Shown piece by piece: positions 9,185-48,936 of a stretch of DNA of 64,000 bases (positions are counted from its first letter, which is position 1; every line of letters starts with the position of its first letter). Source of the stretch: a phage; sequence record PZ386970.1, one strand, 5' to 3'. A program made the translations under genes and the position numbers. The notes under the pieces were generated by a model. The model searched no databases. It had not been told where the DNA came from and saw nothing but the letters and a program-made list of their open reading frames with translations.

Positions 9185-9595
9185 CTACTTTTTCTTATGT
9201 TGGATATTCCAAGGCGGGTTGAACTTTTTGATAAAAAGTGGTTCTTCAAGGTCCATTGTTGCGATGGTCATTGAACCAAGTTCATTGGTGACTGAAAGGT
9301 CAAAACATTGGCGGGCCCAGAATTCAACCTTTTTGCCTTGCATTAAGGCATCCAAAATCATAAGTGATTTTCTTGAATCTGAAGTCTGGTCTTTTCGATT
9401 TATGGCTGTTCGATAATAGTTAATGCGTTTCTTTAAATTCTTGGTTTTACCAATATACACAAGTTCGTCATCTATAGCAATAGCGTATATGACATTTTTC
9501 TTATTAGGGACATCAACTGTTTTAATTGTTGCATCTTCTAATAGCTCCAATTCTGTATATTTAATAAAGGAATATTCGGCGGCAATATCTTTCAT
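9185..9595 (-). CDS. denA: endonuclease II (GIY-YIG family)
   Basis: 136-aa ORF (same as T4 DenA) with GIY-YIG-like block VIYAIAIDDELVYIGKT; position between rnlA and nrdB. Confidence 0.8.
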   Translation of the reverse strand: MKDIAAEYSFIKYTELELLEDATIKTVDVPNKKNVIYAIAIDDELVYIGKTKNLKKRINYYRTAINRKDQTSDSRKSLMILDALMQGKKVEFWARQCFDLSVTNELGSMTIATMDLEEPLFIKKFNPPWNIQHKKK

Positions 9596-44145: not shown

Positions 44146-44558
44146 TATTGTTCCTTAAAGTGAGCTTTCAACATTTGATACAAAGACCATGCCTGGTCGT
44201 TATTTTCGATAGTAATCGTCATCACCGGAAATTCAGACAATTCGTCAAGTTCACTAGAATCTTGCTCTTCGGGCGCTTGATATGGATTTCCAACTTCGTC
44301 AAAGAACTCTGCTTCATTCGTGGAGAGCCAGATAAAGTTTTCATCAAGAATATCACCACCTGTTGCGTATCCAACCATGCCAGTAGATGTCACAATTTTA
44401 GTAGGTCGTCCAAGATGGTCAACATCTAATACTTTAAATGGTTCCATGCCAAGACGTCGTGCATAAATCCCATTATCAGTGTGGTCTTTAATAAACTCTT
44501 CTTGGGCACGTTTATCTTTAAATTGGTACCATGAGTTAACACGGAATTTATTAGCCAT
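44145..44558 (-). CDS. hypothetical protein
   Basis: track ORF 44145..44576 trimmed to ATG (MANKFRV...) overlapping upstream stop. Confidence 0.5.
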
Positions 44559-44785
44559 TAGTAAGTTTCCTTCCAATAAGTTGTACCGTTTTCAGTGATT
44601 TCACGGAAGATACCATAGATAGGCATTTCATCACCAAGTTTTTCGTAAACGTAAACCACTTCAGTGTAGCATAAAAATTCGGTCCAGTTTTTCTGTACAA
44701 CAACTAAATCAGGATTAAACAAAACATCTTCAAACTCATCGATGTTTGAATCAGTAGTTACGTTTTTAATGATTTGACGTTTCAT
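44558..44785 (-). CDS. hypothetical protein
   Basis: track ORF 44558..44830 trimmed to ATG with GAGGAGA RBS; track start lies inside an early promoter. Confidence 0.5.
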
Positions 44786-44842
44786 AATATTCTCCTCTTG
44801 TTTTGATAGGTCTATAGTATCATAGACCATAGTTGTTGTACA

Positions 44843-45367
44843 TCATTTTAGCAAAATAAAATCAACTTGTTCTGCCAATGAACGTCTAAACATTAATTGA
44901 CAACTTCCGAGTATGAAATCAGGTGCTTCATAGACCGCGATGTAGTATCCTTTAGCTTTCAAGAGTTCAACATCCACTTGGTCATCAAACCATGCATAAA
45001 CCGCGTCAACACTTTCAAATCCAAAATAGAACCCTTGAGCCCAATCTTCGCTCAATTCAAATGTGTGCTCAATTCTATAGTATCTTAAGATATTTTGTTC
45101 AAGGAGTTTGTCTTCATTTACTGTAGGACGATTAGGGACGTTATAGTTGTCGCCGTGATGGTAGAAGTTACCTGAGAGTATTCCATGCTTATCAAGGAAC
45201 TCCCATGTTTCTTCAGAGTTGTCGGTGCCCGACCAACCGTATGGTGAGCGAGGTTCTTTATTCCAAGAGGTTTCCCAAATTCTGACGGCTTTGCCGTCTT
45301 CGATAGCAATTCCTGGTAATGATTCACGTTGAGTACAAAAACTACGTTCTACGCGGTAAACTAACAT
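44843..45367 (-). CDS. hypothetical protein
   Basis: track ORF 44843..45436 trimmed to ATG with GAGGAGA RBS downstream of early promoter. Confidence 0.5.
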   Translation of the reverse strand: MLVYRVERSFCTQRESLPGIAIEDGKAVRIWETSWNKEPRSPYGWSGTDNSEETWEFLDKHGILSGNFYHHGDNYNVPNRPTVNEDKLLEQNILRYYRIEHTFELSEDWAQGFYFGFESVDAVYAWFDDQVDVELLKAKGYYIAVYEAPDFILGSCQLMFRRSLAEQVDFILLK

Positions 45368-45428
45368 ATTATTCTCCTCTGGTTGATATGGCTCTATAAT
45401 ATCAAATCCAGAGGAGAAGTAAACAACT

Positions 45429-45848
45429 TTATGCAAAAGATGCTGGACAATATTTTTTGATTCGGAACTCAGGAACTACCATGAACTGCCCGGCAAAAAC
45501 AATGTTGTAAAGCTTGACACCATCTTCAACCCATTGGTCGCTAATAAATCCGGCAATTTGCTTAGTTTTCCATGGTGTTCCATCAGTTGCAGCAGAAATA
45601 GTAAATTCATGGTCTTTTACAACTAAAACAGACCTGCACAGTTTCCATTTGAATGCTTTTTCTTCTGGTTCAATGAACCGGCTTTTAACGTAACCAATGT
45701 TACCATCAGCGTCACGAACTTTAACTTCGTTACGTCCAAAAACCGGATCACTTACATAAAGGACTTCAACCAACTTCCCAGCAACTTTAGAGCGAGAAGC
45801 ATCTGATACGTGTACATAATCACCAATAGAGAGATTTGCAATATTCAT
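45429..45848 (-). CDS. paralog family member A (conserved C-terminal GFISDQWVEDG...LYNIVF.G.F.VV motif)
   Basis: 139-aa ORF; shares N-terminal S.ASRSK.AG.LVEV and C-terminal motif with the next gene. Confidence 0.55.
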   Translation of the reverse strand: MNIANLSIGDYVHVSDASRSKVAGKLVEVLYVSDPVFGRNEVKVRDADGNIGYVKSRFIEPEEKAFKWKLCRSVLVVKDHEFTISAATDGTPWKTKQIAGFISDQWVEDGVKLYNIVFAGQFMVVPEFRIKKYCPASFA

Positions 45849-45857
45849 AATAATTCC

Positions 45858-46313
45858 TTAAGCTTTACGAGGAGATACATAGCGAGTGATTTCAGATTCT
45901 TTAACAACTCGGAAGTCACCTAAGAATACGATATTGTATAACTTTTCACCATCTTCAACCCATTGGTCACTAATGAAGCCACACATAGTATCAGTTTTGC
46001 TTGGATAACCGTATTCATCGATGAAGTCAAATTCTTTATCAGTCTGGAATTCAACACCTTTACACAAGACCCATTTGAACTGTACATTAGGTTCAGTAGA
46101 AGCAAAATGAGCGCTCACATGAGTTTCCAAGAATTTAGGACTTACGTAAGCGTACTGAGTTTCAGTTTTTCCAGAACTAGGAATGATTCGAACTTTAACT
46201 TCTTTAACACGACCAGTACCATTAGTACGAAGTCCTACCACTTCAACTAGACGACCTGCAGCTTTAGAACGAGATGCAGACGATACACGCTTAATTTCAC
46301 CAATAGTAATCAT
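45858..46313 (-). CDS. paralog family member B
   Basis: track ORF 45858..46376 trimmed to ATG (MITIGEIKRVSSASRSKAAGRLVEV...) downstream of its own promoter. Confidence 0.55.
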   Translation of the reverse strand: MITIGEIKRVSSASRSKAAGRLVEVVGLRTNGTGRVKEVKVRIIPSSGKTETQYAYVSPKFLETHVSAHFASTEPNVQFKWVLCKGVEFQTDKEFDFIDEYGYPSKTDTMCGFISDQWVEDGEKLYNIVFLGDFRVVKESEITRYVSPRKA

Positions 46314-46375
46314 AATTTCTCTCTCTTTGTTTAAATTGAATTCACTATACTCCATCCATCCTTGGATGTACAACA

Positions 46376-46870
46376 TTAATTTAGAATATTAACCACAGCA
46401 CTACGTGGAACTACACTAAAATCACCTGCATGAACAACGTTCAGAAGTTCAACACCGTCTTCAATCCACTGATCAGTTACCCATCCACTCACTGGTCCTG
46501 CGAACGGACGACGAATTGAAACAGCTTTACACAACAAATCAGTAGGCTCAATAGGCTTAATCAGAGTACCGTACATACAAGCGATATCCATATCAAAGTG
46601 GAGACCATCTTTAACAGGTGCTTCTTCAATCAACAGTTCAAAGTCGGTGCTTGGAAGGGCGGTAGTAGAAATTGTACCGTATGAATTTTTAATTTCTAAG
46701 AATAACCAAGGGCCTTCAGCTTGTTTGATGAAGTTAACAATAGTGAAACTATTACCTTGAGTGGCACCTAAAATTTCACAAAACTTTTCATAAGCTCGCA
46801 CTGAAGCACCGTACCAGTTGATTTGTTTTTCGTCTTTCAGGATGTAAGTAGCCGTAGTATTGATATTCAT
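46376..46870 (-). CDS. paralog family member C (divergent N-terminus, conserved C-terminal motif)
   Basis: track ORF 46376..46912 trimmed to first ATG (MNINTTATY...) after promoter; C-terminus GWVTDQWIEDGVELLNVVHAGDFSVVP. Confidence 0.55.
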   Translation of the reverse strand: MNINTTATYILKDEKQINWYGASVRAYEKFCEILGATQGNSFTIVNFIKQAEGPWLFLEIKNSYGTISTTALPSTDFELLIEEAPVKDGLHFDMDIACMYGTLIKPIEPTDLLCKAVSIRRPFAGPVSGWVTDQWIEDGVELLNVVHAGDFSVVPRSAVVNILN

Positions 46871-46900
46871 AATGGTTTCCCGTTTGGTTAAGATAGAAAG

Positions 46901-46930
46901 ATTATACTCCAACCATCCTTGGTTGTAAAC
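46901..46930 (-). promoter_or_regulatory. early-type promoter with palindromic spacer (CCAAGGATGG) upstream of paralog C
   Basis: minus strand GTTTAC aaccaaggatggttggag TATAAT; similar promoter upstream of paralog B. Confidence 0.5.
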
Positions 46931-46935
46931 TGTTT

Positions 46936-47613
46936 TTATCGCTGTTTTACACTTAACGGGTCAGGATTCTCAGGGACATCTTCAAGGCCAAGCGCATAAC
47001 GCTGAGCATATTTTAACATCAAAATATCTTTAGCACAATCATGAATACTATCATGGGCAACGAATCCTTTTAGCGTACCCATCGGTAATGGACACATACT
47101 TAATCCTCGTGTCAACGAGTAAGCTTCGATTGCTGTACGAATATCACGTTGAGCCCAGAATTTAACCGGTTCTAATTTATCAGTATCAATATCTGGTTCA
47201 AGAACACCTTCATCACGATAGAGGTCACGAATCAAATCGACCAAGATTGGGAAGTCAAAGCTCATACCACGGCACCACATCTGTGATTTCCATTGGTCAA
47301 CTTTATTAGCTCGGCAATAGTCTAAAAAGATTTTAATGCCTTCAAGCGTAGTGACATCGTCTTCAGACGGGGCCAAGTTTTTACGTGCTTCAGCCGATTG
47401 TTCTTTCCACCATTTCATAGTGGATTTAGCGAAAACTCGCTTCCCTTTCTGAGAAGCTAAATTAAATTTAATTCGTTTACCTCGTTGAACAAGTTCTTCA
47501 AATGATTCAACAACTTCAGGGTCGGAATTATATGCAATAACCGCAAGGTCAATAACAGCCGCTTTTGATGTATTGCCGAATGTTTCAAAATCTATAATAA
47601 CATCAGTGCTCAT
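46936..47613 (-). CDS. dexA: exonuclease A (DEDD 3'-5' exonuclease)
   Basis: 225-aa ORF with DEDD motif I (IIDFETFG) at N-terminus; position adjacent to dda. Confidence 0.85.
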   Translation of the reverse strand: MSTDVIIDFETFGNTSKAAVIDLAVIAYNSDPEVVESFEELVQRGKRIKFNLASQKGKRVFAKSTMKWWKEQSAEARKNLAPSEDDVTTLEGIKIFLDYCRANKVDQWKSQMWCRGMSFDFPILVDLIRDLYRDEGVLEPDIDTDKLEPVKFWAQRDIRTAIEAYSLTRGLSMCPLPMGTLKGFVAHDSIHDCAKDILMLKYAQRYALGLEDVPENPDPLSVKQR

Positions 47614-47622
47614 AATTTTCTC

Positions 47623-48936
47623 TCAAATAAAATGGACGTCAAAACGACCACGAGTTGTGCCTACATACAATAATTGTTTAGCTAATTCTGAATCGGCATA
47701 ATGGATACACGGTGTATAAACAAAGGCCGTGTCAACAGACATACCTTGGGCCTTATGGAAGGTTGATACTGGTAGTGCCTTCACCTTAGTGAACATACGT
47801 TTAGCATCCCAGAATTCGCTCCATGGAGCTTTACCACCTTTATTCCAAAATTTGTATGTTTCTGCGGTCTTAGCCAAAAACAAATTGAATTTATAAAGCT
47901 CTTCTTCGGAAGAAATAACCTTTATATCCTCGCGGACATATTCTTCGTCATCCCCATATGTTTCTACTGTAAGATTCCAGTATCGTATCATATATTCGCC
48001 TGAAACACCACGTGCTTTAACAAATGTAGACGTTTCTACAGCATCTCGAATACGAACGAATTGCCCGTTATTGAAAAGCATTTCAGTCATATTTTTGCCA
48101 TCTAGCTTGTACGTCTTAGTAAACGGCTCTTGTAGAACAATGACTTCGTCTTTAATAAATGGCTTTTCTGTTTCAAGAAGTTTTCGGCGAATAATTGAAT
48201 TTAACTTGTCCACCGACTTATTTGTGAATGCCATCATTCGATTTTCGAAAAGGTCTTCAGGAGTTTTAACGACGTTAAAATAGTTCATCATATACGATTT
48301 AAGGTCTGTATATCCATGAACACCGTGTCCATCAACTACTTTATCGTAAATCCATTTGCCATTACGAATATCAGTCGCAACATCAATAATTGGTGCATTG
48401 CTACGTTTAACTTCTGTAAGGTTGCATTGCACGAAGTCTTTGTGAGTGAAGAAAGGACTTAGATACGCAGTTGATTCGCCTGGGTCGACCGGACGAATCT
48501 GACATCGGTCACCAATTCCAATTACTGTACACCATTTAGGGATACTAGCTAACATTATTTTAAACAGAGAACGGTCACACATTGACGCTTCATCAAATAA
48601 CAGTACACGGCACAAGGCTAAGTCGGGAACCTTTTTCTGTTCAAACAATACGTTTTCTTCGTATGTAGTTGGGTTGATTTTAAGAATGCTATGAATAGTC
48701 GATGCTTCTTGACCCGCAAGTTTGCTTAGAACCTTTTTAGCAGCATGTGTAGGGGCTGCTAAAATAATACCTGATTCTCCAGAAGAAATAAGGGCTTCAA
48801 CGATGAATCTAGTGAGGGTTGTTTTACCTGTACCAGCAGGCCCATTAATAGTTACGTGATGTTTCTTTTCTTTAATAGCGTTCATAACAACGTTGAAGGC
48901 GTTTTTCTGGCCTTCAGTCAAATCATCAAATGTCAT
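47623..48936 (-). CDS. dda: Dda DNA helicase (SF1B)
   Basis: 437-aa ORF; Walker A GPAGTGKTT; N-terminus MTFDDLTEGQKNAFN.VMNAIKEKKHHVTINGPAGTGKTTLT matches T4 Dda. Confidence 0.9.
   Translation of the reverse strand: MTFDDLTEGQKNAFNVVMNAIKEKKHHVTINGPAGTGKTTLTRFIVEALISSGESGIILAAPTHAAKKVLSKLAGQEASTIHSILKINPTTYEENVLFEQKKVPDLALCRVLLFDEASMCDRSLFKIMLASIPKWCTVIGIGDRCQIRPVDPGESTAYLSPFFTHKDFVQCNLTEVKRSNAPIIDVATDIRNGKWIYDKVVDGHGVHGYTDLKSYMMNYFNVVKTPEDLFENRMMAFTNKSVDKLNSIIRRKLLETEKPFIKDEVIVLQEPFTKTYKLDGKNMTEMLFNNGQFVRIRDAVETSTFVKARGVSGEYMIRYWNLTVETYGDDEEYVREDIKVISSEEELYKFNLFLAKTAETYKFWNKGGKAPWSEFWDAKRMFTKVKALPVSTFHKAQGMSVDTAFVYTPCIHYADSELAKQLLYVGTTRGRFDVHFI

Follow-up and report, generated by a model that had tools for sequence, protein, structure and literature searches.

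MotB of phage T4 has a toxic effect on E. coli; the protein binds DNA tightly and without sequence preference, H-NS and StpA co-purify with it, and it raises the burst size two-fold (PMC6070864, PMC7827196). In 2021, MotB and MotB.1 were described as having a common C-terminal domain and unlike N-terminal domains (PMC7827196, section 3.2), and RB69 was reported to have two motB genes plus one motB.1 (PMC7827196). The published assignment of the C-terminal domain of MotB is an OB-fold or cold-shock DNA-binding domain, like the C-domain of eIF5A or CspA. T4 MotB.1 has been placed with GoF and Frd.2 in an LSm-like family (Kim et al. 2025, PMC12152347), and a T4 delta-motB.1 phage, in work that used the T4 reference form of the gene, had no growth phenotype (PMC12152347). 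The other described system of relevance here is that of the PeSL (promoter-early stem-loop) cassettes (Arbiol 2010, PMC2839356; Comeau 2014, PMC4122927). In PeSLs, a Shine-Dalgarno sequence and then a start codon come after a sigma-70-like early promoter (TTTACW-N17-TAYWAT), and a stem-loop that serves as a terminator lies just upstream of the promoter. They form direct repeats around small non-essential genes of the hyperplastic region, near relatives differ by exactly the DNA between the repeats, and mini-circles arise by excision of the cassettes (Arbiol 2010).

We analyzed a stretch of 64,000 nucleotides of phage DNA (PZ386970.1, hereafter the window), in which an earlier note had pointed out three tandem paralogs. 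In our reading, to which we give a probability of around 85%, the DNA comes from an RB69-like Mosigvirus and the paralogs lie in its MotB locus, made of MotB-family early genes and of a promoter-flanked motB.1 cassette. The paralogy of the three genes is already known and not new, since a paper of 2021 (PMC7827196) reported both the paralogy and the gene set of RB69. The genes also bear MotB-like annotations in public genome records.

Results

The three consecutive minus-strand ORFs described between 45429 and 46912 are indeed present (Table 1), and their description as tandem paralogs in a T4-type hyperplastic region was borne out. The DNA of the locus is 95.5-96.4% identical to that of RB69 and p000v, and the gene order is unchanged: dexA, (P1) motB.1, (P2) motB, second motB copy, (P3) motB.2, cef. 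The presence of dexA as the upstream neighbour fixes the synteny. The RB69 locus with motB.1, motB and RB69ORF010c (AY303349) has identical genes in identical order, with 93-95% amino-acid identity. T4 MotB is encoded at the same place, between dexA and cef, with an early-type promoter directly upstream, but T4 has a single motB copy where the phage of the window has two. Two of the ORF ends first given, 46912 and 46376, proved to be those of maximal ORFs, extended to TTG or ATG codons across the promoters. The conserved starts, preceded by ribosome-binding sites, are the ATGs at 46870 (motB.1) and 46313 (motB). The N-terminally extended ORFs of 172 and 178 aa were rejected because the extensions run across promoters and that of motB contains a stop codon in RB69.

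Table 1. Coordinates of the genes, promoter repeats, and inverted repeats of the locus in the window.
Feature	Coordinates	Strand	Evidence or remarks
dexA (exonuclease A)	46936..47613	-	phrog_255, E=9.5e-82; agrees with RB69 annotation
P1, promoter-leader repeat copy 1	46864..46927	-	-35 region to motB.1 start codon; D3
Inverted repeat CAACCA-AGGA-TGGTTG, P1 spacer	46910..46925	-	DNA fold -5.5 kcal/mol, z = -3.65
motB.1 (164 aa, full length)	46376..46870	-	phrog_2333, E=1.5e-81; PF17613 36.8 bits, residues 88-159
P2, promoter-leader repeat copy 2	46307..46370	-	-35 region to motB start codon; D3
Inverted repeat CATCCA-AGGA-TGGATG, P2 spacer	46353..46368	-	DNA fold -5.3 kcal/mol, z = -3.50
motB (151 aa)	45858..46313	-	PF17613 131.7 bits, full length; phrog_1671, E=1.8e-64
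Second motB copy (139 aa, RB69ORF010c type)	45429..45848	-	PF17613 85.2 bits
motB.2 (174 aa)	44843..45367	-	phrog_1106; 97% identical to RB69 MotB.2

All three proteins pass the gathering threshold of the Pfam family PF17613 (motB), which is 25 bits. Alignment recovered the C-terminal motif G(F/W)(I/V)(S/T)DQW(V/I)EDG...VV in all three genes exactly as the earlier note had quoted it, and the N-terminal block S.ASRSK.AG.LVEV in both lower-coordinate genes. The two MotB copies have 45% identity to one another over 145 aa, each is 44-59% identical to MotB.1 over 29-36 aa, and the DNA coding for the shared domain makes up a three-copy repeat family of 68 nt (D1). Across 23 diverse domain sequences, those of all three genes included, the motif has invariant D, Q, W, E, G, L, N, V, G, and V. 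The similarity of the motif among the three genes is not due to chance. The neighbouring motB.2 was considered as a fourth paralog and ruled out, as it has no PF17613 hit and its sole match is 18 aa long and at chance level. This gene has its own promoter-like site (45424-45396) and lies between 40-nt direct repeats (D6, 45365-45404 and 44783-44822) with 80% identity and a period of 582 nt. A PDB sequence search with MotB gave no match at E up to 1, and no RNA family of Rfam reached its gathering threshold anywhere in the window.

The genes motB and second motB copy encode MotB proper (PHROG 1671; Category 1 of PMC7827196), with the motif VS..SRSKAAG.LVEV. The product of motB has a basic KOW-like N-terminal domain with the SRSK motif (charge +7.5), a variable linker, and an acidic C-terminal domain (-4.3). 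Its identity is 95% with RB69 MotB and 48% with T4 MotB, and its AF2 model has a pLDDT of 83.6. The second copy starts 9 nt past the stop codon of motB, has a short linker and a KOW-like N-terminal barrel, and is 93% identical to RB69ORF010c and 40% to T4 MotB. It represents a discrete orthologue group, found at 80% identity or more in around 208 of 774 phage records and in none at 60-80%. T4 MotB (PF17613) has the same KOW-like SRSK N-terminal and DQWVEDG C-terminal domains. However, the MotB proteins of the window are less basic (pI 8.5 vs 9.23; net charge +1.7 for each copy vs +5.8), and their linkers are shorter, above all in the second copy.

The third protein belongs to the MotB.1 group (PHROG 2333; Category 2 of PMC7827196). 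In its AF2 model a small N-terminal beta-barrel, of non-KOW type and with helices, is followed by a disordered linker (residues 86-103) and a MotB-type C-terminal domain. The VS..SRSKAAG.LVEV motif is missing, and the C-terminal domain carries the signature of the group, DPTDLLCKAV...GWVTDQWIEDGVELLNVVHAG, in the alignment. The protein is acidic (pI 4.65, whole-protein charge -8.3). Its residues 1-123 are 94% identical to RB69 MotB.1, and its N-terminal domain and that of T4 MotB.1 are homologues, with 38% identity over 134 aligned positions. It has an extra linker segment, FDMDIACMYGTLIKP, common to T6-type proteins.

The MotB.1 records of T4 and RB69 deserve a separate comment: the T4 reference protein (119 aa) and RB69 ORF012c (29 aa) are products of single-base frameshifts. 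In the RB69 record, two single-T insertions split motB.1 into an ORF of 132 aa and the 29-aa ORF012c, whereas motB.1 of the window is intact. In T4, exact-protein look-ups found an uninterrupted MotB.1 of 143 aa in T4T and 256 contigs, and the 119-aa form on 2 contigs. We rejected a programmed ribosomal frameshift in T4 motB.1 on these counts. The complete MotB-type C-terminal domain is present in MotB.1 of the window and of most T4 isolates, and absent from the 119-aa T4 reference form. These frameshift products bear on the reading of published MotB.1 experiments and of the 'Category 3 peptide'.

The AF2 models of MotB and MotB.1 contain beta domains. The C-terminal barrel common to the family spans around 60 aa, and a 3-10 turn precedes its last strand in both proteins, as it does in the N-terminal domain of MotB. 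The common C-terminal domain models as an SH3/Tudor-like barrel. The predicted likeness to Royal-family and SH3-like barrels (Tudor, chromo, PWWP, BAH, KOW) is one of fold only, at 10-20% sequence identity. In a search of 1.84 billion proteins, a profile of the domain matched no more than 33 cluster representatives. Its 24 best hits (E up to 3.3e-10) are proteins of 101-251 aa, and the distant ones that were sampled have KOW-like N-termini. Matches to multi-repeat proteins of 500-860 aa (P0248 and others, E from 1e-7 to 4e-4) were discarded as spurious, since around 20 profile positions were covered repeatedly. The MotB.1-type form of the domain is near-invariant in proteins of 143-250 aa that have at least four N-terminal architectures. 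A MotB.1 search of IMG/VR gave 11 loci, and distribution counts were taken from the INPHARED phage collection instead. The PF17613 family is one of small early proteins, restricted to a lineage and kept in hundreds of Tevenvirinae genomes.

Early-type promoters had been described before two of the three paralogs. Promoter-like sites do precede motB.1 (46929-46901) and motB (46372-46344); the third gene has no promoter of its own. The promoter scan gave P1 as TTTACA-17-TATAAT (-35 at 46929-46924, -10 at 46906-46901), with 11 of the 12 consensus positions, and P2 as TGTACA-17-TATAGT (-35 at 46372-46367, -10 at 46349-46344), with 9 of 12. Each is followed by a 30-nt leader before the ATG. From the -35 through the -10, the two sites share a block of 29 nt with 25 identical positions. 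This block lies inside the 64-nt direct repeat D3, whose copies are 70% identical and spaced by 557 nt. P1 and P2 are most probably copies of one promoter-plus-leader unit. They flank a 557-bp cassette (promoter and motB.1) that most probably comes and goes through recombination inside the repeat, the mechanism published for the PeSL elements of hyperplastic regions in T4-type phages (PMC2839356, PMC4122927). That a promoter repeat brackets motB.1 explains the likeness of the two promoters.

In the relatives VIPECOMC06, JK45, and JM17, motB.1 and the rest of the 557-bp unit are missing, and one hybrid promoter remains, whose left part resembles P1 and whose right part resembles P2. Among 30 sampled full-coverage records, the cassette was present in 25 and absent in 5. 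Read from these sequences, the hybrid promoter of the relatives without motB.1 is a signature of PeSL cassette shuffling rather than a motB-specific operator. P1 matches the PeSL promoter consensus and P2 does so less well. As in PeSLs, direct repeats surround a small gene, and close relatives differ at motB.1 by exactly the inter-repeat DNA. The stem-loop is placed differently, as the described PeSLs have it upstream of the promoter while here an inverted repeat sits inside the spacer; upstream of P2 there is only a weak hairpin of 5 pairs (46408-46393).

The weaker boxes of P2 (-35 TGTACA, -10 TATAGT) might indicate a recombination remnant that no longer works, with all three paralogs in one operon transcribed from P1, and the overlap of the motB.1 stop codon with an in-frame ATG (TAATG) in the window would fit such an arrangement. 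We consider this unlikely, because in T4, T6, and JS98 alike motB comes right after a strong GTTTAC-17-TATAAT promoter, P2 of the locus L019 has a perfect TATAAT, and the in-frame extension is interrupted by a stop codon in RB69.

The earlier note had also proposed that the paralogs are host-takeover or anti-defence factors under diversifying selection. The two MotB copies do vary more among relatives (76-98% and 84-96% amino-acid identity) than dexA (>99%) and motB.2 (97-100%), some close relatives have motB.1 and others lack it, and N-terminal modules have been swapped across the family. One might thus think of anti-defence or host-range factors that diversify under selection. Yet the gene-wide dN/dS of 0.13-0.22 (medians among orthologues of 0.15, 0.22, and 0.135; pairwise Nei-Gojobori estimates on 5-9 sequences) is well below 1 for all three genes. 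The common domain is nearly invariant, the family is retained across hundreds of Tevenvirinae genomes, and the phenotype in T4 is a two-fold effect on burst size on ordinary hosts with no host-specific block (PMC6070864). We found no evidence pointing to anti-defence and regard this explanation as improbable.

The spacers of both promoters had been said to contain a palindrome, CCAAGGATGG. The 64 kb have precisely two copies of this sequence, both in these spacers (46913-46922 in P1 and 46356-46365 in P2), but it is not a palindrome, as its reverse complement is CCATCCTTGG. It is instead the core of a 16-nt inverted repeat with arms of 6 bp, CA(A/T)CCA-AGGA-TGG(T/A)TG, the 16-mer form being CAACCAAGGATGGTTG. 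Between P1 and P2 the arms differ by a complementary change from A-T to T-A. If the repeat were an operator, it would let a regulator that binds as a dimer, possibly of the MotB family itself, control motB.1 and motB together. The arms of 6 bp give a better fold than shuffled sequence does (z around -3.6), the only two differences between the spacers are complementary at paired positions (by our estimate, a chance of around 2% if unconstrained), and the P1 copy is invariant in all 9 loci read. However, inverted repeats are general in the early promoters of this phage: 11 of 18 promoter-like sites have one of at least 5 bp and 8 of 18 one of at least 6 bp, vs 10.5% of random windows. Another, at 9185, has an identical position in the spacer and a similar core. 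The P2 of RB69 carries CCAAGGACGG, in which one pair is broken, and the spacers of the motB promoters of T4, T6, and JS98 are unrelated. Moreover, T4 MotB binds DNA without sequence specificity (PMC7827196), and the likeness between P1 and P2 takes in all of the promoter and the leader, pointing to common descent and not to a 16-bp site. An operator is therefore very improbable, and the promoter repeat accounts better for the shared sequence.

Discussion

The part of the earlier proposal that concerned host takeover is reasonable by homology to T4 MotB. By this analogy, MotB of the window is most likely a non-specific DNA binder acting on H-NS/StpA-DNA complexes, which it would reshape early in infection, modestly raising the burst size. 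The second motB copy plausibly has a related job. Such a transfer of function from T4 MotB rests on 48% identity for MotB and 40% for the second copy. MotB.1 is unlikely to bind DNA, as both of its domains are acidic. More probably it would use the common C-terminal barrel to reach the partner of MotB or to pair with MotB itself.

As the common barrel is acidic in both MotB and MotB.1, one may doubt whether it is the DNA-binding part. Tentatively, and as a possibility that we hold to be less probable than its negation, the barrel could be an acidic Tudor/SH3-like docking module that brings interchangeable N-terminal barrels to one partner. These would include the KOW-like barrels (basic in MotB), the different and acidic one of MotB.1, the T6-type, and the double-module forms. 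The candidate partners would be H-NS/StpA filaments or another member of the family, and the module would be shuffled between phages as promoter-flanked cassettes.

The motB.1 gene provides a clean and multiply attested case of PeSL-type gain or loss of one defined gene. If the C-terminal barrel is a docking module, the null results obtained with the 119-aa form of T4 MotB.1 may not describe the natural protein of 143-164 aa.

Gene order and identity of the array

The window derives from an RB69-group phage (Mosigvirus) of the T4 type; in DNA comparison, positions 44800-47700 share 96.4% identity with phage p000v and 95.5% with RB69 over the full length. The array consists of three consecutive genes (A, B, and C). 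An earlier note had described them as paralogs sharing a C-terminal motif and, in the first two, an N-terminal SRSK block, and alignment recovered both features. It had extended the ORFs to 46912 and 46376, which are indeed the limits of the maximal ORFs, but the additional N-terminal codons cross the promoters. Conserved start codons lie at 46870 (gene C) and 46313 (gene B); both are ATG with a ribosome-binding site 5' of it, and the N-terminal extension of motB is interrupted by a stop codon in RB69. Gene A starts 9 nt past the stop codon of gene B and has no promoter of its own.

Genes of the motB locus, with assigned identities
Gene	Coordinates	Strand	Family match
cef	44558-44785	-	
motB.2	44843-45367	-	
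gene A (second MotB copy)	45429-45848	-	
gene B (MotB)	45858-46313	-	phrog_1671
gene C (MotB.1)	46376-46870	-	phrog_2333, E=1.5e-81
dexA	46936-47613	-	
dda	47623-48936	-	

All three proteins score above the curated threshold (25 bits) of the Pfam family PF17613 'motB', with 85.2 bits for A, 131.7 for B, and 36.8 for C. A and B show 45% identity across 145 residues, the identity of both to C (44-59%) is confined to the last 29-36 residues, and the DNA encoding the domain forms a three-copy repeat family (D1). Taken together, these comparisons place the similarity far above what chance would be expected to give. We assign gene C to MotB.1, gene B to MotB (95% identity to RB69 MotB, 48% to T4 MotB), and gene A to a second MotB copy (93% identity to RB69 ORF010c, annotated there as 'similar to motB').

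The array is real but already described. According to Patterson-West et al. 2021 (PMC7827196, section 3.2), MotB and MotB.1 have different N-termini and a conserved C-terminal domain in common. The authors proposed that duplication of one gene gave the other, and listed two motB, one motB.1, and one 29-aa peptide in RB69. Kim et al. 2025 (PMC12152347) placed the N-terminal domain of MotB.1 in an LSm-like group with GoF and Frd.2, and observed no growth phenotype for T4 delta-motB.1.

Promoter repeats and a probable motB.1 cassette

Promoter-like sites are found upstream of gene C (P1, TTTACA-17-TATAAT) and gene B (P2, TGTACA-17-TATAGT). The element CCAAGGATGG does occur in both spacers, as previously noted, and exactly twice in the 64 kb. 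It is not itself a palindrome, but sits in the middle of a 16-nt inverted repeat with 6-bp arms, CA(A/T)CCA-AGGA-TGG(T/A)TG, whose two copies fold with -5.5 and -5.3 kcal/mol (z about -3.6) and differ by a complementary pair of arm changes.

The best explanation is that this element belongs to a promoter repeat flanking a mobile motB.1 cassette. A regulator site is a possible but weaker reading, and several observations argue against a motB-specific operator. The likeness of P1 and P2 spans the whole promoter-leader unit: 25 of 29 positions from -35 through -10, and 70% over 64 nt reaching the start codon, with copies 557 nt apart and leaders of equal length (30 nt). In phages VIPECOMC06, JK45, and JM17, which lack motB.1, a single hybrid promoter lies between dexA and motB; its left part resembles P1 and its right part P2. 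The 557-bp unit is absent from 5 and present in 25 of 30 records, a spread sample of those covering a junction probe. Inverted repeats are also common across the early promoters of this phage: those of at least 6 bp occur at 8 of the 18 promoter-like sites, against 10.5% of random windows, and those of at least 5 bp at 11 of the 18, against 33%. Finally, the repeat is broken in the P2 copy of RB69. For these same reasons, the motB.1 promoter repeats fit the model of promoter-early stem-loop (PeSL) cassettes, in which recombination between promoter repeats adds or removes the intervening gene (Arbiol 2010, Comeau 2014). Recombination between P1 and P2 would then lead to the gain or loss of motB.1.

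Along the minus strand of the whole window, perfect inverted repeats are overrepresented at early-promoter-like sites (GTTTAC-N17-19-TATAAT), located within the spacer or bracketing the -10 (e.g., at 466, 6595, 9185, 15211, and 56817). The one at 9185, TACCACAA-GGA-TTGTGGTA, occupies the position in the spacer that the inverted repeat has in the motB.1 promoter.

Direct repeats of 40 nt (44783-44822 and 45365-45404, 80% identity, 582-nt period; repeat family D6) lie on both sides of motB.2 and cover the -10, leader, Shine-Dalgarno sequence, and ATG. The gene follows the MotB copies here, whereas in T4 it lies directly after dexA. These two observations suggest that motB.2 likewise moved as a promoter-flanked cassette. 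A perfect 9-bp inverted repeat on the minus strand, CTCCTCTGG...CCAGAGGAG (45374-45382 / 45408-45416), pairs the spacer of the motB.2 promoter with the Shine-Dalgarno sequence of the gene. This pairing could mask the ribosome-binding site in transcripts that read through from upstream, and RNA begun at the gene's own promoter would be missing the 5' arm.

Selection and distribution of the family

The earlier note expected diversifying selection. Median pairwise dN/dS values, which rest on 5-9 orthologues, were 0.15 for A, 0.22 for B, and 0.135 for C, compared with 0.07 for motB.2 and 0.03 for dexA. The three genes are under purifying selection, more relaxed than in these flanking genes. Medians of 0.135-0.22 thus lend no support to diversifying selection, and pairwise dN/dS among the 5-9 orthologues gave no sign of gene-wide positive selection.

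A profile of the common domain had 33 matches among 1.84 billion representative proteins; the 24 strongest (E up to 3.3e-10) were proteins of 101-251 aa, and the distant matches that were read retained a KOW-like N-terminus. Across proteins of 143-250 aa with at least four N-terminal layouts (LSm-like, T6-type, double module, and KOW-like), the C-terminal domain of the MotB.1 type hardly varies. Hence, the family is narrow and modular: N-terminal modules and gene content vary, the common motif does not.

The A-type copy forms a discrete orthologue group: of 774 phage records, about 208 reach at least 80% identity, and the 60-80% range is empty. In phage RB10 (Tequatrovirus RB3; locus L016, 694-2620), the order is T4-like (dexA, motB.2, motB.1, motB) and an A-type copy directly follows motB, with the 9-nt gap found in the window. 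Hence, motB and the second copy move together as one unit between genera. Two proteins from short Logan contigs, P0029 (172 aa) and P0035 (173 aa), are chimeric MotB with a B-type front and an A-type tail, switching at the conserved DQWVEDG motif and at the FKW motif, respectively. They reflect either unequal crossing-over between tandem paralogs or assembly artefacts.

Function and domain properties

In E. coli, T4 MotB is toxic. It is a tight, non-specific DNA binder that co-purifies with H-NS and StpA, alters H-NS footprints, and doubles burst size (PMC6070864, PMC7827196). By homology, this function may be carried over to gene B and, more weakly, to gene A. The suggestion of host takeover was thus partly right, while anti-defence, like diversifying selection, found no support.

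The AF2 model of the gene B protein (pLDDT 83.6) has two all-beta domains; in that of gene C (pLDDT 78.2), a beta-barrel and two helices make up the N-terminal domain, and the C-terminal domain is all-beta. A short helical turn precedes the last strand of the common domain in both models, and of the N-terminal domain in B. The charge of B is split between the N-terminal (+7.5) and C-terminal (-4.3) domains, and MotB.1 is acidic throughout (pI 4.65, net -8.3). These charges point to the KOW-like half as the likely DNA-binding part and to another role for the common half, e.g., protein docking.

Reference-sequence frameshifts and the MotB.1 linker

Compared with T4T (locus L014) and protein P0116, the T4 reference motB.1 (L002, NC_000866, about 2292-2310) has one extra G, ATTGGAAG in place of ATTGAAG. 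Its 119-aa product ('13.8 kDa', the size given in the 2025 study, PMC12152347) terminates within the DQWIEDG motif and loses most of the conserved C-terminal domain; the frame downstream is intact. In T4T, the gene is intact and encodes 143 aa, a sequence encoded by 256 contigs (2 for the 119-aa form). The RB69 record (L001, AY303349, 3071-3567) differs from the window and from other Mosigviruses by two single-T insertions in motB.1, giving a truncated 132-aa ORF and the 29-aa ORF012c. Hence, the 'Category 3' 29-aa peptide of PMC7827196 is the frameshifted tail of MotB.1.

The segment HFDMDIACMYGTLIKPIE (MotB.1 residues about 84-103, window 46561-46620) is absent from T4 MotB.1. KOW-type Enterobacter phage proteins carry it, as do the T6-type 180-aa proteins, there at the N-terminus. 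The segment is disordered in the model (pLDDT 41-53) and may be a short conserved linear motif.

To what was known of this family, the analysis makes a modest addition: the cassette junctions, the fold and charge of the common domain, and the two reference-sequence frameshifts.
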